Part shown: positions 1-49,672 of the stretch, piece by piece
Layout of the letters: each line of letters opens with the position of its first letter
Numbering within the stretch: position 1 is the stretch's first letter
Assembly (NCBI GenBank): GCA_963422435.1
Contig: OY729511.1
Location: 728,103 to 792,102 of the forward strand
Reading direction: 5' to 3'
Origin: Candidatus Binatia bacterium
Lineage (GTDB): Bacteria; Desulfobacterota; Binatia; Bin18
DNA length: 64,000 nucleotides
The notes under the pieces: model-generated
What the model was told of the DNA's origin: nothing
Databases searched by the model: none
The model's input: only the letters and a program-made list of their open reading frames with translations
Translations under genes and position numbers: made by a program

Positions 1-2237
1 ACCGTAAAGCTATCCCCGCCGCGCGGAATGGGACCAACGTCGAGTTGGGCCCGGAGTTCAGCGTTCACCGCATCGCTCAGCATGTGTTTGATGACGATGT
101 GATGATAGGTGGTTTGGCCATAGGTCCAGTTGGCCATGTCCGGGCCAAAGCGGGTGACGAGGGATTGGACGGCGGCCTGAAAACTCTCGCGTATGAACCG
201 GTCCCGTCCGGCGAGCGGGTCAGGACCGTAGCGTGCATCAGGAGCAAGCAGGCTGTTGATGAGCGGGGTGACGACAATACTCGCAAATGATTCCTGCAGA
301 GCGGCCGGGACGTGCCTGTTCCGAAATTGCTCCCACAACTGGCGCTGCCAGGCGGCATAGATCCCGGCGGCAACGGAGTCCTTGTCCAGCCTGAGGTCCC
401 AGGCGTACAGCGTATTGAGCGCCGCCCGGACGAGCGGGTCTGCCGACGCCCAGTCCTTGTCCTGAGCGCGCAGAAACGGCACCAGCAAACGAGCCGGAAT
501 CGAGTATTCATCGCTCTGGAGCTGCATCATCTCGCGGGCCGTCAGGTTTTTACCCGCGGCAAGGACTTCCTCAATCCGGGCAAACCGGTACGGCTCCAGC
601 CAGTAATAACTGATCGGATAGGGGTAGTTGGGCGGCAGGTTCTCCTGGTTTGCGGTGGCGATAAACCCCTCCGAGGGGTTCAGGACGTGCGGCAGCTCGC
701 GAATCGGCAGATAACCGTCCCACTCAAAGCGTCCATCCCCCGGCACGGGCACCAGGCCGTTCCAGTTGGGCCGGAGCGGCACCACGCCGACCGCCTGCCA
801 GCCGATATTGCCCTGCCTGTCCGCCCAGACCATGTTCTCTGACGGAGCGCGGGAATAGGCGCACGCCTCGCGGAACTCCTGCCAGGTCGTGGCCTGGTCC
901 ATCCGCAGGCTGGCCAGATAGGGTACCCCACCGATATCGAGCCAGGCGGCCCGCAGCCCAAAGGCCAGGGGCCGCTCCGGGTCTTCGGCCAGAATGGGAC
1001 CGTGCCGGGTGTATTTCAGTGCGACTTTGGCAGCGTCCTGGCCTTTCACCGGGATCGTCTCGGAGAGAACCCGCATATCTTCCCATTCCCCTTGATACCA
1101 ATACTGATACGGATTGTCCGGGTTGGTCTTATACACATACAGGTCTTCGGAGTCCGTCGGGAAAATCGTCAGCCCCCACGCTCCCTGCTCGTTATGCCCG
1201 ATAGAAACGCCGGGCAGGTGGGGCTCGCCCCCACCAATCACGTTCCAGCCGGGCGCAACCAGATGCACCCAGTAGCGCAGCGACGGCGCGGTAATGGCCC
1301 GGTGCGGGTCGTTGACCATGAGCGGTTTGCGAGAGAGCGTTTTGGTGCCGCTCACCACCCAGTTATTACTGCCCTCGTCTTGTGACACGGGCTTTCCAAT
1401 GAAGGCCGGTGCAACAGCTTGGCCGGCAGACCGAGGAGGTGGGTCAGTGGTTTCCGAGGCGCGATGCTGTGGATCAACGACGTCTTCGGGCGCAAAGGCG
1501 ACCGCTTCACGCGCGGCTTGATAATACTTCAGGGCATCACCGGGAACGGTCGCCACATCGAGCCCTTCGGGGACGGCCAGGTCGGGCGTTCCGGGGTGCA
1601 AATGGAGCATCGTCCGTATCGTCTCGGGTTGCATGGTTTGCAGCGCCTGGGCGATCAGGACCTCGGTTTCCAGGTTCAGAAAAATCCCGCCGAGGCGCGC
1701 CAGCACAATGTCCGGGGTCCAGTCCTGGGGGGTGATACCGAGCAGGTTAAACTCCAGGGACAGCATCTCCGGCTGTTCCTGGGTCTGCCGGATATAGGCG
1801 TTAATACCCTGGACAAAGGCGGTAATGATCTCTTTCCCGTCCGGGTGATAGTACCGGCACTCCTGGTCCAGGTCGCCGCGAAAACGCAGCAGCCGGGCCC
1901 CGATGTCGCGGTCCAGGGCTTTGGGGCCTTGAATCTCGGCCATCGTGCCAGTGACGCGCCGGCGCCAGATCTCAAGCTGAAACAGGCGATCGCGGGCCGC
2001 GTTATACCCCTGGGCAAAAAACAGGTCGTGCTGGTTCTTGGCATAGATATGAGCGATACCCCAGCGGTCGGTCAGGATTTCGACCGACTCGCGGAGCCCG
2101 GAGACGCGCAGTGTTTCCATTCCATCCTCCTGAACGCTTGTCTGAGGCAGGACCGCGGCTCCACCCAGGGGCGGAGAGAGCCAGGGGGCAACACATAAGA
2201 AGAAGAGAATAGATGCCGTTTTTGCACCCGTCGGCAT
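1..2237 (-). CDS. penicillin acylase/amidase family protein (Ntn-hydrolase, S45-like); C-terminus lies beyond window start
   Basis: Reverse-strand translation from ATG at 2235-2237 gives a signal-peptide-like N-terminus (MPTGAKTASILFFLCVAPWLSP), then acylase-like sequence including an SNNW nucleophile-type motif. It runs off the window edge, so it is not in the ORF track as one ORF. Confidence 0.7.
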   Translation of the reverse strand, partial: MPTGAKTASILFFLCVAPWLSPPLGGAAVLPQTSVQEDGMETLRVSGLRESVEILTDRWGIAHIYAKNQHDLFFAQGYNAARDRLFQLEIWRRRVTGTMAEIQGPKALDRDIGARLLRFRGDLDQECRYYHPDGKEIITAFVQGINAYIRQTQEQPEMLSLEFNLLGITPQDWTPDIVLARLGGIFLNLETEVLIAQALQTMQPETIRTMLHLHPGTPDLAVPEGLDVATVPGDALKYYQAAREAVAFAPEDVVDPQHRASETTDPPPRSAGQAVAPAFIGKPVSQDEGSNNWVVSGTKTLSRKPLMVNDPHRAITAPSLRYWVHLVAPGWNVIGGGEPHLPGVSIGHNEQGAWGLTIFPTDSEDLYVYKTNPDNPYQYWYQGEWEDMRVLSETIPVKGQDAAKVALKYTRHGPILAEDPERPLAFGLRAAWLDIGGVPYLASLRMDQATTWQEFREACAYSRAPSENMVWADRQGNIGWQAVGVVPLRPNWNGLVPVPGDGRFEWDGYLPIRELPHVLNPSEGFIATANQENLPPNYPYPISYYWLEPYRFARIEEVLAAGKNLTAREMMQLQSDEYSIPARLLVPFLRAQDKDWASADPLVRAALNTLYAWDLRLDKDSVAAGIYAAWQRQLWEQFRNRHVPAALQESFASIVVTPLINSLLAPDARYGPDPLAGRDRFIRESFQAAVQSLVTRFGPDMANWTYGQTTYHHIVIKHMLSDAVNAELRAQLDVGPIPRGGDSFT

Positions 2238-4377: not shown

Positions 4378-4576
4378 TCTCTCCTGTGTGGCGCTGAGTA
4401 CCCGGCGGGTGCCGGGCCGTGTCCACATCACAACAGGGAGTGGGATGGGGTCCTGCCCATTCACCACGACGTGAACGGCAACGAAGCTGTCAGGTATACG
4501 TGCGGATGTCAACATAGGGCCGTGCCCTGGATTTCGCTCCTTCAATTTGAGACAGTACCCTTCCAGAAGGAGTACT

Positions 4577-5806
4577 ATGAATTCCAGCACGGTCCCAGCC
4601 CGCATTGAGTCCCTGAAGGTGCAGAACTTTCGGGCGCTGCGCAAAGTCGAGTTCAAGAAGCTCGCGCCCCTGACCGTGCTGCTTGGCCCCAATGGTAGTG
4701 GCAAGTCCACGGTCTTTGACGTGTTCGCGTTTCTGGCCGAGTGCTTTGAGTTGGGGTTGCGCCGGGCTTGGGATAAACGCGGGCGAGCCAAGGAACTCAA
4801 GACGCGCGGCGCACAGGGAGCGGTGACCATCGAGATCAAGTATCGGGAACCCGGCTATCCGCTCATCACCTATCATCTGGCCGTTGATGAACGTGACCGC
4901 GCGCCGGTGGTCGTGGAGGAATGGCTGGGTTGGAAGCGGGGGAGTCATGGGCAACCGTTTCGATTCCTAGAATATGCGCACGGCCAGGGACGAGCGGTTA
5001 GTGGCGAGAGGCCGGACCAGCAGGACAAGAGGGTGGATATTCTGCTCAAATCCCCTGACCTGCTGGCAGTCAACGCGCTTGGACAGTTCGCCGGGCATCC
5101 GCGCGTGGTGGCACTCCGCGACTTTGTCACCGGCTGGCATGTATCGTATCTGTCAGCCGACAGCGCGCGCGGGCAGCCCGAGATGGGACCCCAAGAACGG
5201 CTGAGCAAAACGGGCGACAACCTCGCCAACGTCATTCAATACCTGGCTGAACAGCATCCAGAACGGCTGGAGAACGTCTTCACTATCCTGCGCCGACGGG
5301 TACCGCGCATTGAGCGTGTGCTGGCCGAGACCATGCCCGACGGGCGCCTGCTGTTGCAGATCAAGGACGCCCCGTTCAGCCACCCGGTGCTGGCCCGTTT
5401 CGCTTCCGACGGCACGCTGAAGATGCTGGCCTATCTGGTGCTGCTGTACGACCCCGAACCACCGCCCTTCATTGGCATCGAAGAGCCGGAAAACTTCCTG
5501 CACCCACGGCTGCTGGCCGAACTGGCCGAGGAGTGCCGCGCGGCCAGTGAACGCACCCAGTTGCTCGTGACCACCCATTCGCCGTTTTTCCTGAACGCCT
5601 TGCGGCCTCAAGAGGTACGGGTCCTGTGGCGCGACGATCGGGGCTATACACAGTCGCAACACGTGGCTGATTTACCCAAGGTGCGCAATTTCCTGGAGTG
5701 TGGCGGGCTGCTGGGAAACTTATGGATGGAGGGATATTTCAGCGTGGGTGATCCGCTGGTCAATCAAGGCGCGCCGACCGCTCCTCCACAAAGGCCCAAG
5801 CTGTGA
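4577..5806 (+). CDS. AAA_21/AAA_15-type ABC ATPase (OLD / AriA / AbiLi-like)
   Basis: GAAGGAG RBS, ATG 4577. Walker [12 protein letters not shown], Walker B/D-loop [14 protein letters not shown]-loop VTTHSP: an SMC/RecF-like ABC ATPase typical of defence-associated ATPases. Confidence 0.8.
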
Positions 5807-6426
5807 TTGCCAGACATTTGGAATTGCTTGTTGAAGAGCCGTCAATGGAAGCGTTTCTGCGAGAACTCCTGCCGTGTATTTTGCCCGCAGACTGTGGTTT
5901 CGATATCCATACGTTTCAGGGTAAGCCCGACCAGCGAGGCAAGTTACAGAACCGTCTGAGGGGTTACGCGCAGTTGCCCGACGCCTGGCGCATCCTTGTG
6001 GTAGTGGATCGCGATGACGATGACTGCCGGCAGCTCAAGCAGTGGCGAGAAGACGTCGCATCGGGGGCGAATCTGCGCACGAGATCGCAAGCGGTTGGCC
6101 AGTCCTGGCAATTGGTCAACCGTGTGGTCATCGAGGAGTTGGAGGCGTGGTATTTCGGTAACTGGGAGGCTGTACGCAGCGCCTATCCGAGAGTATCGCC
6201 CACCGTTCCGAATCAAAGTCGTTATCGCAATCCCGACTCAGTCCAGGGTGGAACCTGGGAGGCGTTCGAGCGGATACCGAAACGGCGCGGGTATTTCAAG
6301 ACAGGATTACGCAAGATGGAAGCAGCGCGGGCCGTTGCTGCCCACATTGACCCGGCGCGTAACCGTTCACCCAGCTTCTCAAAATTTTACGACGCCGTCG
6401 TCGAAGCGACATCTTATCAGCAGTGA
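5803..6426 (+). CDS. DUF4276-like small Toprim-like protein (partner of upstream ATPase)
   Basis: Start overlaps the upstream stop (ATGA, 4-bp overlap). N-terminal [16 protein letters not shown] and acidic [11 protein letters not shown] resemble the Toprim Glu and DxD motifs and the DUF4276 signature as I recall it. Confidence 0.6.
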
Positions 6427-6467: not shown

Positions 6468-7544
6468 ATGGACTTCGGAGTGGGCTTTCAGTCGCATATT
6501 CACAACGGATGGAAACACGCCCTGCTGGCCGAGCAGATGGGGTTTACTCATGCCTGGTTTGTGGACTCACAGTTGATTACCTCGGACGTATATGCCTGCA
6601 TGACCCTGGCCGCCGCGCATACCACAACGATTCGACTCGGCACCGGCGTCACTATTGTTGGGACGCGGATTCCCCCCGTTATTGCGCATTCGATTGCCAC
6701 CATCAATCAGCTTGCGCCCGGTCGGGTGATTCTCGGTCTGGGCACCGGCCATACGGCCTGGCGGACCATGGACATGCCACCGGTTTCGCTCGCAGCGTTC
6801 CGGCACACGGTCGAGGTCTGTCAGGGCCTGCTGCGGGGCGAGACTGTCGCCTATCACGAGCGCGGACGGCAGAGCCGGATTCGGTTCATGGATGTTGAGC
6901 ACGGCTATATTAACGTGCGCGAGCGCATCCCTATCTATCTGGCGGCCTCGCACCCCAAGGCTCAGGCCCTGGCCGGTGAGCTGGGCGACGGCCTGTTGAC
7001 CCTGAGCCTGCTCGCGCCCGAGTCGCTCACCCGCACTCTGGCGGCAGTCGCACAGGGCTGGGAGGGACGGGACGGCGGGAAACCGGCTGACTTCGGTGTG
7101 GTCACGCTCGGCATCTCCTGCGTGCTGCAACCCGGCGAGGCAGTGAACAGTCCGCGCGTGCTGTCACGGGTCGGTCCGCGCATTGCGGTGGCCCTGCACT
7201 ATGCCTATGAAGTCGCCAGACAGGGCAAAACGGTGCCGCCTTTTTTACAACCCTTCCTGACTCCGGAGTACCAGCGCTATCTGGATGAGCGCTGGGAAGA
7301 CGTACACGCCACGCACTCGCGCTTTCTGCATCCGGGCGAAGAAAAATTCATTACCCCCGAGGCTATTCGGGCCATGAGCCTGACCGGCTCGCGCGCTGAC
7401 ATCCTCGAACGTCTCGCTCAGCTTGAAGCCGCCGGACTCACCCAGATGGTGGTCTCACCCCCGTGGGGTCTGGTGGAAGAAAGCATCGTGGAGTTCGCCC
7501 GAGAGATTATTGGGCCATACACACAGCTCACCACTCGTCACTGA
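6468..7544 (+). CDS. LLM-class (luciferase-like) flavin/F420-dependent oxidoreductase
   Basis: 358 aa. N-terminal FGVGFQSH... and a TIM-barrel LLM-like sequence with GLGTGH motifs. Confidence 0.75.
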   Translation: MDFGVGFQSHIHNGWKHALLAEQMGFTHAWFVDSQLITSDVYACMTLAAAHTTTIRLGTGVTIVGTRIPPVIAHSIATINQLAPGRVILGLGTGHTAWRTMDMPPVSLAAFRHTVEVCQGLLRGETVAYHERGRQSRIRFMDVEHGYINVRERIPIYLAASHPKAQALAGELGDGLLTLSLLAPESLTRTLAAVAQGWEGRDGGKPADFGVVTLGISCVLQPGEAVNSPRVLSRVGPRIAVALHYAYEVARQGKTVPPFLQPFLTPEYQRYLDERWEDVHATHSRFLHPGEEKFITPEAIRAMSLTGSRADILERLAQLEAAGLTQMVVSPPWGLVEESIVEFAREIIGPYTQLTTRH

Positions 7545-7624: not shown

Positions 7625-8473
7625 ATGGATACGACGCAAGACGAAGCAGTACGCTATGAACAGGTCGGACATATCGGCTGGCTGAGACTCAATCGGGCGG
7701 ACAAGCTGAACGCCATGACGCCCCAGATGTGGCAAGCCTTACGGGAACTCGGCCACACGCTTTCCACCGAAGAACACGCCCGTGAGAACCAGCTACGGGC
7801 GCTCGTCGTGATGGGCGAAGGCCGCGCGTTCTCGACCGGGATCGATACCTCGGCCTTTGGTGGCGTGGTCTTTAACGGACATGAACGTGATCCTGTGCCC
7901 GAGGTGGTGGCCGACGATGATCCCATGGTGTCCATTATCCAGGGCTTTCAGGAAGCCTTCACCTGGCTTGAAGAAGCCCCCTATCCGACCATTGCCGCGG
8001 TCCGGGGCTATGCCTTGGGCGCGGGCATGCAGATGGCGCTGGCCTGCGATATCCGGGTGGTCGCCCGCGGCAGCCGGCTGGGCTTGCTGGAACATCGCTA
8101 CGGCCTCATCCCCGACCTGGGCGGCACCCAACGCCTGCCCCGACTGGTCGGTACGGGTAAGGCCAAGGAGCTCATCTTCACCGCGCAGCAGATTGAGGCC
8201 GAAGAAGCCTACCGGATCGGTCTGGCCGAACAACTCGTTGACGACGAGGCATTGGAGGCGACCGTGACGGACCTGGCAGACCAGTTGGCCAGTCAGCCGC
8301 CGCTGGCCGTGCGCTATGCCAAGCAGGCGATTGACGCCAGCCAGTATCTTTCCGTCCGAGACGGACTCCTGCTGGAAGCCAAGAGCCAGGCGGTCTGCGT
8401 TCGCTCCCAGGACGCCAAGGAAGCGGTGCGGGCGTTTATGGAAAAACGGATGCCCCGCTACTCGGGGCAATAG
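7625..8473 (+). CDS. enoyl-CoA hydratase/isomerase (crotonase family)
   Basis: AGGAAGGA RBS then ATG 7625 (MDTTQDEAVRYEQVGHIGWLRLNRADKLNAM). Crotonase motifs (GEGRAFSTGID, oxyanion-hole region). Confidence 0.85.
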   Translation: MDTTQDEAVRYEQVGHIGWLRLNRADKLNAMTPQMWQALRELGHTLSTEEHARENQLRALVVMGEGRAFSTGIDTSAFGGVVFNGHERDPVPEVVADDDPMVSIIQGFQEAFTWLEEAPYPTIAAVRGYALGAGMQMALACDIRVVARGSRLGLLEHRYGLIPDLGGTQRLPRLVGTGKAKELIFTAQQIEAEEAYRIGLAEQLVDDEALEATVTDLADQLASQPPLAVRYAKQAIDASQYLSVRDGLLLEAKSQAVCVRSQDAKEAVRAFMEKRMPRYSGQ

Positions 8474-8503
8474 AAAGAGGCGGGACAGTAAAGGAGGCGG
8501 ACA

Positions 8504-9325
8504 ATGACAGACCACGGCTATGCCCGACCGGACATGCTGGCAGAGACCCAATGGCTCGCGGCGCATCTCCAGGATGACAACCTGCGGCTCGTCGATTGTG
8601 ATAATCGCGAAGCCTACCGCCGTGCCCATATTCCGGGTGCGATTCCCGTTCGCGGCCATCATTATTTCAAGGAAAAAGAAGGTGCGCCGCATATCATGGG
8701 CCCGGACCAGTTTGCTCAGACCATGGGAGAGATGGGCATTGGGGATGACACGCTGGTGGTTGCCTATGATGGCTTCAGCGGGCTGTACGCGGCCCGGCTC
8801 TGGTGGGCGCTGCACTATTACGGCCATACCAATGTCAGAGTGCTGAACGGGGGCTGGGACGCCTGGCTGGCCGAAGGGCGGCCAGTGACCAACGCCTCAT
8901 CCCGTCCGGCCCAGGCGACCTTTACGGCCCAGGCGAATGCAGACCTGATCGCCCGCTGGGAGCGGGTCCAGGCGGCCATTGCCGCGGAGACCGTGCTGCT
9001 CGATGTGCGCTCAGATGCGGAGTGGACCGGCGAAAACAACCGGGGCACCAAGCGGGGTGGGCGGATTCCCGGCGCGGTCCATCTCGAATGGCTCAACTAT
9101 GTGGACCCCCAGACAAAAAAGTTCAAGCCCGCGGACGAACTTCGCCCCATGTTTGAGCAGGCCGGGGTCAAGCCCGAGGGTGAGGTCGTCACCTATTGAC
9201 AGGGTGGCATCCGTGCGGCGCACGGATTGTTCACCCTTCGCTTGCTCGGTTTTGACAAGGTACGGAATTACGATGCCTCCTGGGCCGAATGGGGCAATCG
9301 CGAGGACCTCCCGCTGGAAAAATAG
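8504..9325 (+). CDS. two-domain rhodanese (thiosulfate/3-mercaptopyruvate sulfurtransferase family) with in-frame TGA (9197-9199) at the catalytic Cys position; candidate selenoprotein
   Basis: ORF 8504..9199 ends VVTY-TGA. The same frame continues [41 protein letters not shown] to TAG 9323-9325. This reproduces the TST/MST active-site loop C(R/Q)xGx(R/T) and the C-terminal YDGSWSEWG-like motif, with TGA where Cys is expected. Confidence 0.6.
9203..9235 (+). promoter_or_regulatory. SECIS-like stem-loop immediately downstream of the in-frame UGA
   Basis: GGTG-GC-ATCCGTG-CGGCG-CACGGAT-TGTT-CACC: 7-bp perfect upper stem with a G-rich 5-nt loop, an internal loop, and a 4-bp lower stem, starting 4 nt after UGA. 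Confidence 0.45.
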
Positions 9326-9331
9326 ACTCTG

Positions 9332-9916
9332 GTGACGCTCCCTCCTCATATGGCTGGATACAGACAATCGCTGGGGCTTCTGGCCGTTCTGCTCGCCTGC
9401 TTTCTTTTCCCCAACCGGGTCTGTCTCGCCCAGCCCGCGGTTGAGCCCGAACCCCACGGCAACCTGATCATCCAGACTCCGGGAGAACGGGCTCAGCCGG
9501 TCTTGGTCGATACCAAGGGTGCCGTCCCGCCCCAGAGCCAGTGGTGGCGCGATAGTGAGCTTTTGCGGGGCGGACTCCGGGAATTGACGCTACGCGAGCG
9601 CGGGCGGGGTGAACTCCTGGTCCATCCCCGGCTGGCCGGAAAAGATGTCAGTCCGCTGGCCCAGGTCATCATTTACGCCGCGGGGACGCAAAAAGAGGTT
9701 GCTCGCAGCGAGTCCGGCCAGGAACATCGCTTTGTCCTGGATACCGGCAGCTATGATGTGTTTGTGGCCAATCCAACGGGACGGGGAAAGCCCTTCGTGC
9801 TGGAACGCACGGAACTCCCGGATGAAAAAACTGTCGAAAAGGATGTCCACCTGGATGAACCGGCCGACCAGCCTGCGGCGCAGCCCCCAATCCATTCGGA
9901 ACCGCAGACCCGCTAA
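9332..9916 (+). CDS. secreted hypothetical protein
   Basis: N-terminal hydrophobic signal-like segment (LGLLAVLLACFLFP..AQP); no recognisable domain. Confidence 0.45.
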   Translation: MTLPPHMAGYRQSLGLLAVLLACFLFPNRVCLAQPAVEPEPHGNLIIQTPGERAQPVLVDTKGAVPPQSQWWRDSELLRGGLRELTLRERGRGELLVHPRLAGKDVSPLAQVIIYAAGTQKEVARSESGQEHRFVLDTGSYDVFVANPTGRGKPFVLERTELPDEKTVEKDVHLDEPADQPAAQPPIHSEPQTR

Positions 9917-9931
9917 GCCGGGGGAAATGAG

Positions 9932-10186
9932 TTGAAGTCCGTACACACCGACCAGTACCGCGAGTTCCGGGCCCTGATGGTTGCGGCGAGGAAAGCCGCC
10001 GGCCTGACTCAGACGGAACTCGCCAAGCAGTTGGGCAAATCGCAGTCCTACGTTTCAAAATATGAGCGCGGTGAGCGACGCCTGGATGTCATAGAGTTCC
10101 TGACGCTCGCCGACCTGCTGCATTGCGACCCCCACGCCTGTATCACCAGACTGAGCGCCCTGTCCCTCAAACGCGCGGTGTCATGA
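9932..10186 (+). CDS. XRE-family helix-turn-helix transcriptional regulator (TTG start)
   Basis: [26 protein letters not shown] is a classic HTH_3/XRE motif; 84 aa. Confidence 0.65.
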
Positions 10187-10431
10187 AAACGACCGGCGAT
10201 GTCATTCAATCGGCCAGTGTCCACCTGACTGCACTCACCGGCCATATTTTCGATCTCCTCACCATTGCCAAACCAATCTCTCCAGAAGCCGCTGTCAACT
10301 TGGCGAAAGTTTGGAAACAAATTTCGCCAAGATCAATAGAATCAACCATGCCGAGATCACCGCATTCAAGCACAAGGTGCTCAACGCTGAGCACCACGGA
10401 AGAACAATACGAGAGTGGGCACGGCTACTAG
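10183..10431 (+). CDS. hypothetical small protein (overlaps HTH gene stop by ATGA)
   Basis: ATG 10183 overlaps TGA of the HTH gene. No recognisable domain; competes with ORF 10311..10517 in another frame; possibly one frameshifted gene. Confidence 0.25.
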
Positions 10432-10517
10432 GGCGGGGGAACGAAACCAGGCTTCAAAAAGCACTCGGAGATAACCTGGACATCAGAGAAGCGGATTCTG
10501 AAGACAGCGTTCAATAA
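10311..10517 (+). CDS. hypothetical small protein (alternative frame, TTG start)
   Basis: 68 aa charged sequence with host-like GC3 in its first half; no domain recognised. Confidence 0.25.
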   Translation: METNFAKINRINHAEITAFKHKVLNAEHHGRTIREWARLLGRGNETRLQKALGDNLDIREADSEDSVQ

Positions 10518-11577
10518 CGCGCTTCTGCCCGAAATAGTAGTACGTCGGATCAATCTCGCTGCCAAAGGCAGGTCGCTTAAGGCCATGCGCGGCAATACAG
10601 GTCGTAAATAAACCGCCAAAAGGCTCCCACACAACATCACCAACCTCGGTTGAGGCTTCAATGATTCGTGAAATCAAGTCGAGAGGCTTCTGGTTCAGAT
10701 GCAGGGCCTTGCCGTTTAATCCAGGTGTTGTATACCGCTCCGCACCATGTAAAGCAGGGCGCTCCCATACATTTGTCACACCGTGCGGACAGCTAAATTT
10801 AGAACGGTATCCTTTCCAATCCTGCGCTGTAGCAGGTCTCTTCCCATCTAACGAAAAATACGGTCGGCCTTCCGGTTTGCCATACTTGTTCGCATAGCTT
10901 TGCATTTTCTCGAACATTTCCGGCGGGGGGTAGTACCACAAATGGCTTTGGTCAAGATATTTACGGACAGCAACGTCTTTGACACCACAAGCCTCGTTCG
11001 CCCGCTTCAGGGGTAAGCCGGTTCGTTTCCATTCCCGATACAGCCACTCCTTCAGCACCAGCCCATTCACACGGGGCTCAAAAACGTACTGAATGCAGAC
11101 TTCCGTCACAACGGGAAAGCGTCGTATTTTCTTTGTATTCACATTACCCGCGATATGGCCTTTCCCCTTATTCCACACATTGGCGTTTACATAGCGCCAC
11201 CCGTACTTTTCCAGGGTCGGGTGAACAGCCGCCCAACCGATTTCGGAATTCCAAAACCACAGGGTCGTGTCAGGTTTCGCTTTTCGCGCCCAGGCCGCAA
11301 TGTGCGGCTCATACCACTCTGGCAAACCCAAATGATCGGACGTGTCTCCTTCAAAGCCAAGGACACCATAGCCGCCGTCTGACACAATGGCGGTTGGCGA
11401 CTCCCACGAGTCGGACTGCTCAAGACTGTCGCCTAGCGATATGTGGACGAGTTCATCCGACCACACTGGCGACTCTGGTGTGAAATCCTCTTTCAACGCC
11501 CGCCCTCGCCCTACCGTGCTCGTCGGCGTTGTTTTTTTCTTCCTTTTGGGCGGCAAGGGGATTGTATCAGTTTCCAT
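10483..11577 (-). CDS. beta-class DNA methyltransferase (N6-adenine/N4-cytosine family), orphan, on lower-GC DNA
   Basis: C-terminal motif I region LHLNQKPLDLISRIIEASTEVGDVVWEPFGGLFTTCIAA matches the HPTQKP...DPFxGSGTT class. The N-terminal region has SDGGYG where (D/S)PPY is expected. N-terminal basic tract PKRKKKTT. Local GC is clearly below flanks. Confidence 0.7.
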   Translation of the reverse strand: METDTIPLPPKRKKKTTPTSTVGRGRALKEDFTPESPVWSDELVHISLGDSLEQSDSWESPTAIVSDGGYGVLGFEGDTSDHLGLPEWYEPHIAAWARKAKPDTTLWFWNSEIGWAAVHPTLEKYGWRYVNANVWNKGKGHIAGNVNTKKIRRFPVVTEVCIQYVFEPRVNGLVLKEWLYREWKRTGLPLKRANEACGVKDVAVRKYLDQSHLWYYPPPEMFEKMQSYANKYGKPEGRPYFSLDGKRPATAQDWKGYRSKFSCPHGVTNVWERPALHGAERYTTPGLNGKALHLNQKPLDLISRIIEASTEVGDVVWEPFGGLFTTCIAAHGLKRPAFGSEIDPTYYYFGQKRVIERCLQNPLL

Positions 11578-26755: not shown

Positions 26756-27145
26756 CTACTTGCCCTCGTTGCTACCCGAGGTTTTGTACAAGTCATCAAA
26801 ATGCCACAACTTTTCTATTAAATACTTAAGCAAAACACCCAAGGCACTACTAATAATATCCAGTGTAAAACCCAGTCCGGTGCTTGCCTGAAAACTTCCT
26901 GATGCTATTAGCCAAATTGCTACCGCAATTAGAACTATAATTATCAAGCAAAGGAAAGCCGATGCGGCTCTTGAAAACCAGGTTTGCCAAGCGAGATGCT
27001 TGAACCGGGAAATCTCTACGGTATGGCTATGTTCCTGCTGTCGGCTTTCTAATCCTTGCTCATGCTCTTGCTTTGCAGTCCCCCTTGGAGCTTCCTGTTT
27101 CTGCTCATCCAGTCGCGGGTCTTTAATGGGGGGTCTGTCATTCAT
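26756..27145 (-). CDS. small 2-TM membrane protein (candidate toxin partner of Panacea gene)
   Basis: 129 aa. Charged N-terminus then hydrophobic helices FLCLIIIVLIAVAIWLIA and GFTLDIISSALGVLL. Its start codon abuts the stop of the upstream Panacea gene. Confidence 0.5.
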   Translation of the reverse strand: MNDRPPIKDPRLDEQKQEAPRGTAKQEHEQGLESRQQEHSHTVEISRFKHLAWQTWFSRAASAFLCLIIIVLIAVAIWLIASGSFQASTGLGFTLDIISSALGVLLKYLIEKLWHFDDLYKTSGSNEGK

Positions 27146-27608
27146 TTAGTTGCTCATGATCTGTTTGAAATGTTTCTTTATTTCTTCCCGGTTTAATTTG
27201 TTGTTTGCTTTTTGCTTAGCCGATGACCAGGGTGTGTCTGATTCATGTGTCAAATTTGAAAGGTATAAACCAGAGTAAGGAGAATAGAGGTCCCAAACCT
27301 GGCCCAGCACCCAGTGGAAATCAACATCCTCCTCAGGCACTCCCTCTCTATCCACGGGTCCATATAATTCCCAGTTTTCCTTACTGATAGGCAAGCTTCC
27401 AAAAGTTTTGCGCATGATAGATGTCCGGGAATACTGGTCCATAGGGCCAAGCCTCTGGCTCATTCTCGATTGCTGGCTGGTTAAAACACGCCAAGTGCCA
27501 TCCATGAACCAGATATGCCAGTTTTTGTAACTTAAGTGGGCTAATCGGTGTATTTTGCTCAAACGACAGCTTCAACACACTATTGGCAACTTGCAGTGCA
27601 GAATACAT
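27146..27608 (-). pseudogene. Panacea-domain (DUF4065, SocA/GepA-like) protein, frameshifted
   Basis: N-terminal frame (27608->27381) MYSALQVANSVLKL...LKLQKLAYLVHGWHLA...EAWPYGPVFPDIYHA. C-terminal frame (from ~27409 to 27146) KTFGSLPISKENWELYGPV...LSNLTHESDTPW. The two halves join at an A4/T4 homopolymer near 27397-27406. AGGAGG RBS upstream of 27608. Confidence 0.65.
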
Positions 27609-27830
27609 TCTTGATTACCTCCTAGATCGCTTGTAGCTCAGATAGGCATTGAACTCAATTCACCAGTTGAGCTATCACTGCGCGGTAAAGAGCTGATTAT
27701 TATTCCTGTGGTTCCGCCCAGCTTTGACACTGGAGGGAGTGTCGAACCAAGTCAATGCGCGCAACTTGCACGGTGAAGTAGGTATCGTGGCCATATTGTA
27801 TATGTTGACATCTGCCGATTTGAAAAACTA

Positions 27831-28010
27831 CCAATCCCTAAAATTTCCGAATCGGAACGACAATCGTTCATAGCGTTGGTGGATAAAGTAATCGCTGGTA
27901 AAGAAAGCGGGTACAGACACCATCGGATGGAAGCCGAAATCGACGCGCGGATGTATGAGCCTTACAATCTGGCGGATAAGGAGATTGCGGCTGTGGATGA
28001 GTGCAAGTGA
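27831..28010 (+). pseudogene. remnant copy 2 of methyltransferase C-terminal tail
   Basis: IPKISESERQSFIALVDKVIAGK....MEAEIDARMYEPYNLADKEIAAVDECK-TGA parallels IPNIPAIEQHPFIRLIDRIL-AKADNP...EAEINRLVYGLYDLTEEEIKLVE of the full gene. Confidence 0.5.
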
Positions 28011-28110
28011 AATCACACAAAAAGGAGGGGCAGATTGGATTTTTTGAGAAGGGGAAAAACCTTGTTCAATTTGCTGAACGCAACAGACACCCCAAAAGCA
28101 AGGACAATCC

Positions 28111-28518
28111 ATGAATGGCATGGAAAAGGTCGTCAAACACCTTGAGATGACCCAAACCGTAATCAACCGATTGGGTAATAACTCCTTCCAACTCAAAGGT
28201 TGGAGCATGACCCTCATTGTGGCCGCGATGGTACTAATTGGTCGATATGGCTTGCAGAACCCATGCATCATCCTGACGTTTATCCTCCCTATTTTGGGAT
28301 TCTGGATTCTAGATGGGTACTTCCTTTGGCAGGAGAGGTTGTTCCGACAGGTCTATGATGAAATCAGGCAGCAAGATAACACCGACTTCAAGATGGATGT
28401 GATGAAGCACAGGGACAAACCCAAATGCAGTTGGTGGTCTGCCGCATTTTCTGTCACGCTCGTTATTTTTTACGCGGTCGAATTCGTATTTATTCTTGCC
28501 ACTTTCGTCATACTTTAA
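28111..28518 (+). CDS. small 3-TM membrane protein (upstream partner of TIR-like gene)
   Basis: 135 aa. Hydrophobic helices WSMTLIVAAMVLIG, CIILTFILPILGFWIL, WWSAAFSVTLVIFYAVEFVFILATFVIL. AT-rich codon usage; 14-nt gap to next gene. Confidence 0.55.
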   Translation: MNGMEKVVKHLEMTQTVINRLGNNSFQLKGWSMTLIVAAMVLIGRYGLQNPCIILTFILPILGFWILDGYFLWQERLFRQVYDEIRQQDNTDFKMDVMKHRDKPKCSWWSAAFSVTLVIFYAVEFVFILATFVIL

Positions 28519-28532
28519 ATGGAGGCGCCAGC

Positions 28533-28970
28533 ATGAGACACGTATTTTTTAGCTTCAAATATAAAGATGTTTCCAGAGCAATGGTTGTGAGAAATAGCTG
28601 GGTTACTCAAGGTAACGAAGCGGCTGGTTTTATAGATGCTGCGGATTTTGAGAAGATCAAACGGCAGGGTGATGCATCCATCAGACGCTGGATTGATAAC
28701 CAGCTACAAGGCACTTCCGTAACCGTCGTCCTAGTTGGACAACACACATGCAGTAGTCGTTGGGTAAGGTACGAAATAGATAAAAGTATTGAAAGAGGCA
28801 ACGGTCTTCTGGGTATCGACATAAGTAAAATCAACGATTTACAGGGACGCACCAGCGAACTATGTGGACAAATCCCAAAGGGTTCCCCATTCTACTTGTG
28901 GGACAAAGACAATGGTTATGGCAATCTCGGCGACTGGATTGAAAAAGCCGCACAGCAAGCCGGAAGATAG
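28533..28970 (+). CDS. TIR-like domain protein (DUF1863 / ThsB-like)
   Basis: GGAGG RBS, ATG 28533. MRHVFFSFKYKDVSRAMVVRNSWVT...SSRWVRYEIDKSIERGNGLLGI matches the ThsB/DUF1863 TIR-like signature as I recall it. Confidence 0.65.
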   Translation: MRHVFFSFKYKDVSRAMVVRNSWVTQGNEAAGFIDAADFEKIKRQGDASIRRWIDNQLQGTSVTVVLVGQHTCSSRWVRYEIDKSIERGNGLLGIDISKINDLQGRTSELCGQIPKGSPFYLWDKDNGYGNLGDWIEKAAQQAGR

Positions 28971-29069: not shown

Positions 29070-30295
29070 GTGCGTCCGAACGGCAAGACACAACCTCTAC
29101 AATCTTGGCTTTGATTCAGGAAATCATGGAAAAGTCCGCCGATGGAGACTATATCTATCGCGGTGAACCAGAGTGCTACCCCAAAGTATCCTCAACGCTT
29201 CATCGCGAATACGCAGAGGTGGATGCGGAGAACTTTAAATTGGAGGACGTCCAGAAGGAGATACTGGAACAGGCCAGGAAATACACAGCCGTAACTGACG
29301 CGCTGGAAATCTTGACAGAACTCCAGCACCACGGCGGCAACACCAATCTTATCGATTTTACGAACGACTGCCACATAGCGCTCTTTTTCGCCTGTGACGG
29401 CTCCCCTGACAAAGATGGCAGGGTTATCCTGCTGAAAAAAGCAACGGAACAAGGCCAGATCAGAGAGCCCCGGAACCCTGTCAACCGCGTCATCGCTTAG
29501 AAGAGCATCTTTGTGCAGCCACCGAAAGGCTTTATTAACCCCGACGGAGAAATCATCATCCCGAAAAACCTCAAACAGCCCATACTGAACCATCTGCGAA
29601 AATACAACGGCATATCCACCGAAACCATCTACAACGACCTGCACGGCTTTATCAAACATCGGGGAATCCACCAAAGCGCCTACACGGAGTTTTACAGAGG
29701 TCTGACTTATTCGAGAAAGGGAGTTGAATCGGCAGACAAGGAAGAACAACAGAGATTCTATGAAAAGGCCATTGCACATTACACTGAAGCCTTGAGATTG
29801 AACCCAAATCTTGCCGAGGCATACAACAACCGGGGCACCGCCAAGGTAGAACTTGGACAACACCAGGAAGCGATTGTGGATTTTGATACGGCGATAGGAA
29901 TCAATCCGAACCATGCCGCAGCCCGCAACAACCGGGGAATCGCCAAGGTAGAACTTGGACAACACCAGGAAGCGATTGTGGATTTTGATACGGCAATAAA
30001 CCTCAATCCGCACGATGCCAAAGCCTACAACAACCGGGGCACCGCCAAGAGAGGACTTGGACAACACCAGGAAGCGATTGTGGATTTTGATACGGCAATA
30101 AACCTCAATCCGCACTATGCCGAAGCCTACTACAACCGGGGCACCGCCAAGAGAGGACTTGGTCGGAATCAGGAAGCCCGCGAAGATTTTCAAACATGCC
30201 TCACCCTGGCAAAAGCACAGGGTAATGCCGAGCTTGTCGAGCTTGCCCAAAAGGCGCTGGATACTCTGGGGCTTGGTAGCGGTAGTTCGGATTAG
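29066..30295 (+). pseudogene. FRG-domain protein with C-terminal TPR repeats, interrupted by in-frame TAG (29498-29500)
   Basis: FRG-like motifs YIYRGEPECYPKVSSTLHRE and LQHHGGNTNLIDFTNDCHIALFFA. ORFs 29066..29500 and 29513..30295 are in the same frame, separated only by the TAG. The C-terminal half is four near-identical TPR units. Confidence 0.55.
29806..30180 (+). repeat. four tandem ~102-bp near-identical repeats (each one TPR unit) inside the FRG-TPR gene
   Basis: Repeating GCCTACAACAACCGGGGCACCGCCAAG...CAACACCAGGAAGCGATTGTGGATTTTGATACGGC(G/A)ATA units with a few substitutions. Confidence 0.8.
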
Positions 30296-30415
30296 GTACT
30301 CGTACTTCAGCCATAATAGGCCCCTTTTGCTCTTTAAGAATCATCCCTCCAGGGCTCTTGCCTTCAGCCCTGCCGATATCTCCAAAACTGGCCAAACGTC
30401 AAGTTTAAGATCATA

Positions 30416-31117
30416 ATGTACTCCATGGCCGTTACTGCACGCATAGGACGCCCACCCGGGGCAGATGGCGAAGCGACGCGGGAAACCATTCTGAAGGCCG
30501 CCCTCGAAGCCTTTGCCGAGGCCGGCTACGAGGCCATGTCCGTGCGTGCGCTGGCCCGTCGGCTGGGCGTCAGCCACAACCTGATTCACCATCATTTCGA
30601 GTCCAAACGACAGCTCTGGTATGAGGCCATAGATTTTGGGCTCGGCCGACGGGCGAGTGAAATCCGTCAGTTTCTGGAGATACCCGAGTCCAATCCGCAG
30701 GATGCGATTACCGGATTTTGTGAAGGGGTACGCCGCTTCATTCTGCTCGGCGCTCATCTGCCTGCCATCCCTCGGATTTTGCTCCATGAATTCGCTGAAG
30801 GAGGCGAACGGCTCGACTATATCTACGAGCAGCATCTTCAACCCCTGGTCGAAGGGGCGATTCGATTCCTCAAGCATCTGGGGGATGCCAAGGCGGGCGA
30901 TATTGATGCTCGGAGCTTTATCCTCCTGATTGGCACCAGTACCCTCTCCCTCTTCAATCAGTCTGCGTTTGCCGAGAAGATTGGCGGTCCCGACCCCTTC
31001 TCCGAAGAAACGGTCGAGCGCCATATTCGGACGGTCACGCGTCTCGTGCTCACTGGTGTGTTGGCGGAACCGCTGAACAATCCTTTTACTGCATCCGGTT
31101 CACATCGTCCGGGTTGA
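30416..31117 (+). CDS. TetR-family transcriptional regulator
   Basis: N-terminal [43 protein letters not shown]. Confidence 0.8.
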
Positions 31118-36137: not shown

Positions 36138-36301
36138 TGGCAGTCATCCCCTCTCCAACTCCTTTTCTCCCCCATTCATTGCACGAGCACCTATCATAGG
36201 TGAAGGAGGGTAACGGCAATACATACATCCGCCGTCCGATTCTCACGGGGGAGATCAGCCGAGAACCGGCTTGGTGTGCTGCGGGAGGGAAGGGGAAAAG
36301 T

Positions 36302-36374
<73 letters not shown>

Positions 36375-46988: not shown

Positions 46989-48896
46989 CTAGGTTTTCCG
47001 CAGCCGACGCACGTCGCCGACCCGGACCGTGAGGCCACTTCGGTCAAAGTATTCCAGCAGAGGAATAGCCGTTTTTCGACTAATGCCGAGCAGGTCACGG
47101 AATATGGCCGCAGTAATTTCCCCGTGAGTCGCCACATAGTCCGTCAGTGCCGCCTGCGCTTGACCCAGCACTCTTCCGCTTATGTAGAAATCCGGCGTAA
47201 TTTTGACCAACGCCCCTCGTGACTCAAGCACCGCCAGGAAATCGTTCAGCCGTTTGCGAGGAAGTTGCAGCAATTCCTCCAGCCCCTTCGTGTCCGGTGG
47301 GGTGAATTGTCCGTCTTGGACGAGACGTTCGAGTCGAGCGGCGATGGCCTGCTCTTCCTGGCTGAGCGAGACAGCGTGGGCCGGCAGACGCAGCAGGCTC
47401 TCGTGGCGAGCGACAACCCCTTCCTTAATGAGCCGCTCGGCCACAACCCGAAAAATCTTGGGCGTCAGGTTAAACGGCAGTTGGCTCCGCACCGACTCCA
47501 TTTCCATCCCCTGAGCCAGCGGGGTCTGGGCGTGAAAAACGGTCAGCAGCTTTTCAACGGCAGCGACCAGCCGCCGCCATTTTGTTGCACTGGAATAGGC
47601 TTCGGGATGCCGGGCATCGGGGAAAGGCAGAATCGCGTCGTCGTTTGCAAGCAGGGCAGTAATCTCCTCTTCCCGCGCGTTCACCCCGTGATACATTTCG
47701 TCCAGCCGGACGGCAAACTGCGGGCAGACTTCCAGATAGGCATAGCAGGCCTGACGGAGGTCTGTTGTTTGCAGGGCCTGTAAGCGTACCGTGACCTGGG
47801 TTTCGGCCCTGCGGTGGCGTTGGGCAAAAGGATTCACCACCACCCCACCGCCCAACGTTCCTTGCGCGGCTTGATTGCGCAGCACGAAGTGGTCCCCGCG
47901 CAGGGCAACCAAGGGATCCTGGGTGACAATTTGACACAGGGCTGTCGATTTCGGCGGCAAGACCTCAAGGCCGCCAAGCAAGATGATTTTCCCAATCACT
48001 TCGGCGGTCCCCAGATGAATGCGCACCCGCTCGTGGTTCACAACCTCGCGTCCCGTGCTCGGCCGGATTTCGACCCTGGCATCAAAACGGGTGGTGGTCA
48101 TGCGGACTTGGGGATGACACACGACATGGCCACGAGCCATATCCGCCTTATCCAGTCCGACCAGATTCAGCGCAACCCGCTGTCCCCAATGCGCTTCGGA
48201 CATAGCCTCCCCGTGGACTTGGAGCGAACGCACCCGCGCTTCTTTCCGGGTTGGGAGTACGCGGACGGTCTCACCTGCGCGCACGGTTCCGGCCAGCGCA
48301 GTCCCGGTCACAACAACCCCGTGCCCTTTGAGCGTAAAGACCCGATCGACCGGCAACCGAAAGTATCCGGGCTGGGAAGGACGGGTATAGGCTTCAAGCT
48401 GCTGCGCAATTTCATGTTGCAGTCCATCCAGGCCCTGGCCGGTAATAGAGGAGACCGGCAGGATGGGCGCACCTTCAAAAACGGTTTCAATCGTCAGAAT
48501 CTCGATTTCCTCCCGCACCTCTTCAATTCGCTCGGGACCGACCATATCGGCTTTGGTAATAACGAAGATTCCCTTCTGCACGCCCAGCAGGTGGAGGAAA
48601 TCGAAATGTTCCTCGGACTGAGGCATAACGCCATCGTCCGCGGCAACGGTAAACAGCACCAGGTCTATGCCTTGGGCGCCGGCCAGCATATTGCGGATAA
48701 AGCGCTCGTGACCGGGCACATCGACGATCCCGGCCCGCTCGCCATTAGGCAAATCCAGATAGGCAAAGCCGAGATCAATGGAGATGCCCCGCTCCTTTTC
48801 CTCTTTGAGCCGGTCAGTATCGTGCCCGGTCAGGGCCTTGAGTAATGAGGTTTTGCCGTGGTCAATATGTCCGGCAGTGCCAATAATATGCGGCAT
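46989..48896 (-). CDS. selB: selenocysteine-specific translation elongation factor SelB
   Basis: [24 protein letters not shown]...[15 protein letters not shown] GTPase start diagnostic of SelB. 635 aa with a C-terminal winged-helix region ending ...[28 protein letters not shown], which matches the E. coli SelB C-terminus pattern. Confidence 0.9.
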
Positions 48897-49027
48897 AGCG
48901 TGTCCCTGAGACAGGATCGCATTGTGTCAAAAAGGAGGGCGGAAAGAAATCCCTCACAAGCCGGCCGTAGTCCAGACGACCAAGACAGGACGCGGAGACC
49001 TGTGCTACCAAGAATACTCGATCCAGT

Positions 49028-49672
49028 ATGAAACAATTCGCACTTCTGAGCCCCGAAGAAGTCAGGCAGACCGCTCGCACGACCCTCGCCTTTTATGACC
49101 GGTTTGCGGAAGCGTTCTGGCACGGGACGCAGGACCACGATGTCAGTCAGAACCGGGCCGCCCTGCTCAATCATGCAGCGGGAGACGGTCCGTATTCCAT
49201 CCTCGACTTTGGCTGCGGCCCGGGCCGTGACCTTGCCGCCTTTCGTAACCTGGGCCACGAGGCGGTTGGACTGGATGGGGCGGAACGCTTCGTTGAAATG
49301 GCCAGACACCAGACGGGCTGCGAGGTCTGGCATCAGGATTTTCTCGACCTGAGATTACCGTCTGAGCGCTTTGACGGCATTTTTGCCAACGCCTCCCTCT
49401 TTCATATTCCGAGCCAGGAGTTGCCGCGAGTCCTCGGACAGCTTTGGGACACGCTCAGACCGAACGGTATTCTGTTCAGCTCAAATCCGCGTGGTCATGA
49501 CCAAGAAGGCTGGCAAGACCATCGCTACGGCAGCTTCTACACGTTTGAGACTTGGCGGCAGCTCCTCACGCGGGCACAATTTCAGGCAGTCACACATTAC
49601 TATCGTCCGCCCGGAAAACCGCGCCCGCAGCAGCCCTGGCTGGCAACCGTGTGGCGTAAGGCTATCGCCTGA
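49028..49672 (+). CDS. class I SAM-dependent methyltransferase
   Basis: Motif I ILDFGCGPGRD. Confidence 0.65.
   Translation: MKQFALLSPEEVRQTARTTLAFYDRFAEAFWHGTQDHDVSQNRAALLNHAAGDGPYSILDFGCGPGRDLAAFRNLGHEAVGLDGAERFVEMARHQTGCEVWHQDFLDLRLPSERFDGIFANASLFHIPSQELPRVLGQLWDTLRPNGILFSSNPRGHDQEGWQDHRYGSFYTFETWRQLLTRAQFQAVTHYYRPPGKPRPQQPWLATVWRKAIA

Follow-up and report, generated by a model that had tools for sequence, protein, structure and literature searches.

Rhodanese-related sulfurtransferases containing selenocysteine (Sec) have been reported from metagenomic surveys, with three sequences of COG2897 carrying predicted selenocysteine insertion sequence (SECIS) elements in the Sargasso Sea metagenome in 2005 (PMC1088965), and eight sequences of cd01449 together with one of COG2897 in the GOS data in 2008 (PMC2398784). 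Five forms of rhodanese selenoprotein are distinguished in a 2026 review; form 4, the rhodanese-related sulfurtransferase, has the motif UxxG, and the others are form 1 (UxxS, Geobacter WP_010941598.1), form 2 (single domain, COG0607), form 3 (LYCAU, NF041203) and TsoB (NF045694) (PMC13188914). This report deals with a tandem-rhodanese gene interrupted by an in-frame UGA, located in a stretch of 64,000 nucleotides of contig OY729511.1 from a Candidatus Binatia bacterium (hereafter the window, meaning that whole stretch).

In the SECIS of Escherichia coli fdhF, which needs SelB (PMC8659212; PMC1794560), 11 nt separate the UGA from the upper stem-loop, which is essential (PMC8659212, citing Liu et al., 1998). 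The description of bacterial SECIS elements includes a G in a small apical loop (PMC8659212; PMC1088965), and the hairpin found in the window matches it. In Proteobacteria the genes selA, selB, and selC form operons (PMC1794560). In the library of papers searched, none was found that ties Binatia to selenoproteins.

The locus is very probably a genuine selenoprotein gene, predicted to encode a two-domain rhodanese, with the fold of the thiosulfate/3-mercaptopyruvate-type sulfurtransferases, in which Sec takes the place of the catalytic cysteine. A preliminary description of the same DNA had proposed a candidate selenocysteine sulfurtransferase and had stated that Sec rhodanese-type sulfurtransferases were already reported, which the three papers on this group cited above (PMC1088965; PMC2398784; PMC13188914) bear out. 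Its reading is supported here by the UGA at the catalytic position, a conserved frame beyond it, a constraint on the hairpin that is specific to UGA forms and an intact selB. Both the family and the SelB/SECIS mechanism are already established, and the window gene adds a member.

The interrupted gene and its relatives

The open reading frame (ORF) at 8504–9199 on the plus strand terminates at TGA 9197–9199, preceded by ...GEVVTY; past this codon the same frame remains open for 41 codons more, up to TAG 9323–9325. Reading through the TGA gives a product of 273 residues (231 codons, the UGA as Sec232, 41 further codons and the TAG stop) in which Pfam finds PF00581 (Rhodanese) as two stretches (E 1.5e-38), the catalytic domain being the C-terminal one. 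The start Met is common to the homologs. The preliminary description had the ORF stop after VVTY and the frame go on into the rhodanese loop and C-terminus of a protein of ~273 aa, as is indeed seen in the sequence and its read-through translation.

End-to-end alignments were obtained with the tandem rhodaneses 1UAR (4e-47), 3HZU (2e-43), and 1E0C (2e-37). In each of them the residue aligned with the UGA is the Cys at the head of the active-site loop, which reads CRIAER in 1UAR (..vvyCRiaeRs..), CRIGER in 3HZU (..vvyCRigeRs..) and CQTHHR in 1E0C (..vthCQthhRs..); this Cys in 1E0C is the catalytic Cys230 of Azotobacter RhdA. The earlier claim that the stop falls on the catalytic Cys thus agrees with these structures and with 46 full-length homologs. 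Thiosulfate-type rhodaneses have the loop CRxGx[R/T] and mercaptopyruvate-type enzymes CG[S/T]GVT; the loop of the window gene, UQGGIR, fits neither.

A protein search gave thousands of homologs, and the best 120 cluster representatives were inspected. Seventy of these clusters end in ..TY at the UGA position, with 231–232 residues and 62–91% identity, and are gene calls truncated at the UGA codon; another 46 are full length and have Cys at that position. When one genome per species was scanned, 80 loci were obtained, nearly all from Candidatus Binatia or Chloroflexota/Dehalococcoidia, the closest being on a Candidatus Binatia chromosome (L001, OZ243979.1; 96% identity). The site could be placed in 79 of them; its codon is TGA (68/79) or TGC (11/79) and nothing else, and the peptide QGGIRAAH... 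follows in frame in all 79, down to 51% protein identity. The recurrence of the TGA and its downstream frame, together with the hairpin core described below, in 68 other genomes is more than chance and rules out a sequencing error or a recent nonsense mutation. Alignment with Cys-containing orthologs, proposed earlier as a check, thus yields TGC in 11 of 79 genomes and Cys in the 46 full-length clusters; the orthologs do not all end at this position, since the frame is kept downstream in the 68 TGA genomes.

Codon statistics were taken on 69 distinct Sec-form genes and on the Cys forms (n = 11). In the Sec forms, mean entropy at codon positions 1/2/3 is 0.50/0.47/1.32 bits over codons 242–273, with a major-residue frequency of 0.84, as compared with 0.69/0.53/1.40 bits and 0.74 for the 231 codons 5' of the UGA. 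From this entropy pattern and the conservation of its residues it follows that the tail is translated and under purifying selection: it evolves as coding sequence, with a selection at least as strong as in the rest of the gene.

Six metagenome-assembled genome (MAG) records among the related loci (L020, L025, L026, L028, L039, and L045) bear the title "uncultured Enterobacteriaceae bacterium (binchicken...)". Each holds a Binatia-type Sec-rhodanese (69–81% identity), and some of their neighbors match those of the window; the labels look wrong or may be placeholders.

The hairpin downstream of the UGA

The minimum-energy fold of 9194–9260 is a long hairpin (~9197–9239) with the apical loop GGC at 9217–9219 and an energy of -27.7 kcal/mol (z = -2.9 against dinucleotide shuffles, 3 of 200 of which are equally stable). 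In a genome of 60% G+C such a single-sequence fold is only suggestive, and it is the comparative data that decide.

For this comparison codons were threaded on the protein alignment, and synonymous entropy was calculated for the 122 columns in which one degenerate amino acid occurs in at least 80% of the Sec forms. It amounts to at least 0.57 bits in 116 of the 122 columns of the 69 Sec-form genes. The sole exceptions are six consecutive codons, 236–241, at 9209–9226 of the window: I236 (ATC), R237 (CGT), A238 (GCG), A239 (GCG), and H240 (CAC) are the same in 69/69 genes, with zero entropy, and G241 is GGA in 64/65 (0.11 bits). The 11 Cys forms retain I-R-A-A-H but their codons differ (ATC/ATT/ATA, CGC/CGG, GCG/GCC/GCA, and so on; 0.95–1.79 bits). 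Among the genes compared, constraint at the RNA level on the hairpin is confined to the UGA forms.

In the RNAalifold consensus the upper stem, which begins 11 nt 3' of the UGA, consists of the pairs C9211-G9225, C-G, G-C, U-A, G-C, and C9216-G9220 and is closed by the loop G9217-G-C9219; five of the pairs are identical in 63/63 distinct sequences and one C-G pair is present in 59/63. In the lower stem 84.5% of the cells are paired across the 63 sequences vs. 31–54% with slid partners. The 48 nt from the UGA fold on average to -19.1 kcal/mol in Sec forms vs. -16.0 kcal/mol in Cys forms (one-sided Mann-Whitney, p = 0.025). Within the window the 17-nt core has a single occurrence; the one further close match is that of the palindromic core to itself on the opposite strand. 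The stem-loop proposed in the preliminary description (9203–9235, 4 nt after the UGA) lies inside the minimum-energy hairpin; its position has to be refined, as the conserved core is at 9211–9225, 11 nt after the UGA, and the lower stem is variable.

Decoding, proposed mechanism and rival explanations

The preliminary description also placed selB in the window, with correct coordinates and no mention of the strand, which is minus. The encoded SelB is complete, comprising the EF-Tu GTPase domain (GTP_EFTU), domain 2, Beta-barrel_SelB, SelB-wing_2, and SelB-wing_3, and scores 385.9 bits on TIGR00475 (cut-off 242). Directly upstream lies an ORF of 167 residues without Pfam match (48830–49333, minus strand) that overlaps the annotated selB start by 67 nt. 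A reassigned genetic code is ruled out: TGA ends 7 of the 15 other Pfam-supported genes in the window and is therefore a normal stop of the standard code.

If decoding proceeds as in E. coli, SelB would attach by its C-terminal winged-helix domain, during translation of the mRNA, to the hairpin at 9211–9225, 11 nt 3' of the UGA, and SelB-GTP would bring Sec-tRNA(Sec) to UGA 9197–9199. The 41 codons translated next would complete the active-site loop (U-Q-G-G-I-R-A) and add the C-terminal helices. In the enzyme, the sulfur (or selenium) under transfer is presumably bound to Sec232 in a Se-S (or Se-Se) adduct, where ordinary rhodaneses have a Cys persulfide. The presence of selenium in the protein, the binding of the hairpin by SelB, the chemistry of the intermediate and the physiological substrate are all points that we infer.

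Other explanations of the TGA have to be weighed against a selenoprotein. If the locus were a pseudogene or carried a recent nonsense mutation, its product would be a 231-residue fragment without catalytic loop, which is what gene callers return when they stop the ORF at 9199, and all 70 related Sec-form database entries are equally truncated. However, the TGA recurs across two phyla in 68 genomes, at protein identities as low as 51%, and the 41 downstream codons are in frame, more conserved than the N-terminal part and variable mainly at third positions, which makes decay of the gene extremely improbable. That an error of sequencing or assembly turned TGC or TGT into TGA is conceivable inasmuch as a single base separates the codons and Cys forms with TGC exist, but the same TGA is found in 68 independently assembled genomes, many of them closed long-read chromosomes, and these also share the hairpin constraint that is missing from the TGC forms; the probability of such an error is practically negligible. 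A further possibility is that the UGA is read through without Sec, by near-cognate insertion of Trp or Cys or by hairpin-stimulated suppression, the hairpin being a generic stimulator or regulator. Against it stand the fact that Cys is the sole alternative codon in the homologs, the hallmark of a Sec/Cys pair; the placement of the hairpin at 11 nt and its small G-containing loop, as in bacterial SECIS elements (PMC8659212; PMC1088965); the retention of an intact SelB including the SECIS-binding winged-helix domain; and the consideration that Trp at the catalytic site of a rhodanese would mean an inactive enzyme. Such read-through is judged very unlikely.

Several observations nevertheless count against a selenoprotein, and the first two of them would favor read-through without Sec. 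Neither selA, selD nor tRNA-Sec (selC) was found within the 64-kb window by ARAGORN, Rfam, and Pfam on 39 ORFs, the only tRNA in it being tRNA-Ala at 36300–36373 (ARAGORN, Rfam). No Rfam family, and hence no SECIS model, matches at the hairpin (9150–9300 at E up to 10; the window at gathering score); bacterial SECIS elements are too short and varied for good coverage in Rfam. Two marks of the E. coli fdhF element, a bulged U and a GU motif in the loop, are absent from the apical loop GGC (CGGCG with the closing pair open). The lower stem shows weak covariation, with three measures matched by 14 to 22 of 500 shuffles and two counts of pairs or pair types not above shuffles (211 and 305 of 500), and the invariance of the upper stem means that no compensatory changes are on offer there. 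Because the upper stem never varies and covariation in the lower stem is weak, the case rests on the invariance of synonymous sites and on the Sec/Cys contrast.

Genomic setting, evolution and place among known selenoproteins

The features of the locus are collected in Table 1. In Binatia the rhodanese gene belongs to a same-strand run formed by a luciferase-like monooxygenase (6468–7544), an enoyl-CoA hydratase, the rhodanese and a hypothetical protein, of which the monooxygenase neighbors 33 related loci, the hydratase 25 and the hypothetical protein 34. The synteny of this run is not present in Chloroflexota loci, and the neighborhood gives no pointer to a specific substrate. Relatives of the hypothetical protein (loci L001–L045 and L082) appear ~100 residues longer at the N-terminus, with 291 residues in L082. 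Conserved synteny seems to stop at the next ORF (9932–10186, 84 residues), which looks like a helix-turn-helix regulator from its sequence and occurs in only 3 related loci. It is followed by a DNA methyltransferase gene on the minus strand (10483–11577, PF01555), and the region 9932–11577 is a dip in G+C (0.54).

Table 1. Positions in the window of the Sec-rhodanese gene, its signals and associated genes.
Feature	Position	Strand	Basis or remark
Enoyl-CoA hydratase, 31-nt gap to the rhodanese gene	7625..8473	+	PF00378, E 6e-46; upstream in 25 related loci and L082
Shine-Dalgarno GGAGG	8493..8497	+	6 nt 5' of ATG; read from sequence
Predicted complete coding sequence of tandem-rhodanese selenoprotein, 273 residues	8504..9325	+	Translation, PF00581, PDB matches, 69 Sec-form and 11 Cys-form orthologs
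In-frame UGA as putative selenocysteine, opening the loop U-Q-G-G-I-R-A	9197..9199	+	Alignment with catalytic Cys; TGA/TGC in relatives
Full hairpin with variable lower stem (9201-9210 with 9226-9237)	9201..9237	+	Minimum-energy fold; 84.5% of cells paired
Invariant core of the putative SECIS, ATCCGTGCGGCGCACGGA, codons I236-G241	9209..9226	+	Synonymous sites fixed; columns 13-28 invariant in 63 distinct sequences
Upper hairpin of the putative SECIS, 6-bp stem 9211-9216/9220-9225, loop GGC 9217-9219	9211..9225	+	RNAalifold consensus
Hypothetical protein with signal-peptide-like N-terminus, 6-nt gap after the rhodanese stop	9332..9916	+	No Pfam match; tblastn matches in 34 related loci
selB, selenocysteine-specific elongation factor, 635 residues	46989..48896	-	Pfam domains, TIGR00475

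Candidate defense genes occur elsewhere in the window. Just upstream of the monooxygenase-hydratase-rhodanese run, an AAA_21 ATPase (419 residues) and a DUF4276 protein (207 residues) are encoded at 4547–6426 (plus strand) with a 4-nt overlap and match the PADLOC candidate defense pair HEC-01A/HEC-01B (E 2e-158 and 4e-78). The segment 19467–26588 (plus strand) encodes a 1110-residue HKD(PLD)+Snf2 helicase (PADLOC C3a139, E 5e-112), then a 1170-residue type IIG restriction-methyltransferase (E 1.5e-139); with a G+C of 0.55, which goes down to 0.47 at 26–30 kb, it looks like a horizontally acquired defense island. Further on, a ThsB-like TIR protein is encoded at 28425–28970 (plus strand; PADLOC ThsB, E 2e-55; Pfam ThsB_TIR), with no ThsA partner among the four neighboring ORFs scanned. 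Three small minus-strand ORFs at 26756–28271 gave no matches. The plus-strand ORF 29513–30295 has only a weak tetratricopeptide repeat (TPR) match; a 102-nt tandem repeat within it (29812–30162, 3.4 copies, 89% matches) corresponds to TPR repeats of 34 residues.

Pairs of same-frame ORFs interrupted by TGA were listed for the window, and the two longest chains were read. The one at 291–2198 (plus strand) consists of three long ORFs split only by TGA 840–842 and 1383–1385 and has no Pfam matches; to judge by its translation it looks like GC-rich DNA read in a non-coding frame. The other, at 29192–31099 on the minus strand (ORFs 29192–30250 and 30341–31024 across a TGA), was discarded as an antisense artifact over the TPR-repeat gene.

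On the evolution of the gene the data are no more than suggestive. In a rough neighbor-joining tree the Sec forms fall into a Binatia clade and a Chloroflexota clade, and the Cys forms make up a sister clade as well as singletons nested within the Sec clades. P0003 (locus L081) and P0006 (locus L082), the Cys forms nearest to the window protein, are each 74% identical to it and both have TGC; the hairpin core shows a single change in L081 (CAC to CAT) and the change GGA to AGC in L082. TGC together with a core with one or two changes is what a recent replacement of Sec by Cys predicts, and these cores look like fossil SECIS elements left by such a replacement. A single origin is suggested by the fact that the core is identical in both phyla. 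A wider scenario would make Sec both dominant and ancestral in a tandem-rhodanese subfamily of its own: the UGA would have arisen once along with an identical core of 16–18 nt, and transfer between Binatia and Chloroflexota and several reversions to Cys would have followed. This scenario is speculative and rather unlikely. If true, it would imply a strong and lasting advantage of selenium in an active site for persulfide transfer, i.e., not that of an oxidoreductase. Alternatively, the enzyme could in reality serve the trafficking of selenium specifically, by way of a Se-Se or Se-S carrier state, and not generic sulfur transfer.

The knowledge of recoding is unchanged by this locus and its value is practical, in the repair of annotation and in a Sec/Cys series for enzymology. 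Since 70 of the best 120 homolog clusters end at the UGA, and are recorded as 231–232-residue "sulfurtransferases" without catalytic residue, a clade of Binatia/Chloroflexota enzymes is mis-called in public annotation; this clade is large and is found in soil and groundwater. The 69 natural Sec variants and the nested Cys revertants of one enzyme amount to a natural experiment on selenium in sulfur transfer, and a sequence-invariant SECIS would offer a clean case for the study of recognition by SelB beyond Proteobacteria and Firmicutes.

As regards the signal for Sec insertion, the window hairpin resembles the SECIS of E. coli fdhF in lying within the coding sequence and in having an upper stem-loop 11 nt after the UGA and a guanosine in the apical loop (PMC8659212; PMC1794560). 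There is no sequence similarity between the two, and the window hairpin is a perfect one of 15 nt with a GGC loop whereas the fdhF element is 17 nt long and has a bulged U and the loop GGUC. Unlike in the selA-selB-selC operons of Proteobacteria (PMC1794560), selB of the window is not beside selA or selC.

The protein itself aligns over its full length with Cys-type tandem rhodaneses (Thermus thermophilus 1UAR, M. tuberculosis SseA 3HZU, Azotobacter vinelandii RhdA 1E0C, and E. coli SseA 1URH; E 4e-47 to 2e-31), sharing with them the domain order and a catalytic position that opens a six-residue loop, but would differ by Sec in place of Cys and has the loop UQGGIR. Its homologs are named thiosulfate/3-mercaptopyruvate sulfurtransferase by JGI and the best NCBIfam match is the SseA model. 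Identity with 3-mercaptopyruvate sulfurtransferase SseA proper was rejected, as the window protein reaches 150.9 bits on the equivalog NF008557 (cut-off 250) and has UQGGIR instead of CG[S/T]GVT as its loop; the window gene is a relative of SseA and no equivalog.

Among the rhodanese selenoproteins, forms 1–3 and TsoB share with the window gene a rhodanese fold bearing Sec but are single-domain proteins or fusions with other motifs, and the models of these other forms do not fit it (NF041203: 33.4 bits against a cut-off of 115, with the match off the active site). By domain class and motif only (COG2897/cd01449, UxxG) the gene may be filed under form 4, the exemplars of which (MCY3690685.1 and AACY01016424) were compared with it by their description. 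On these terms, what it has in common with form 4 is a two-domain rhodanese of the SseA/COG2897 class, the predicted change of the catalytic Cys to Sec, the motif UxxG (here UQGG), a SECIS-like hairpin directly after the UGA with a G in a small loop, and widespread Cys homologs. The described cases of form 4 are, however, a handful of marine metagenome reads, whereas the gene of the window belongs to a large clade, found in MAGs of Binatia and Chloroflexota, where the putative Sec form is in the majority (68/79).

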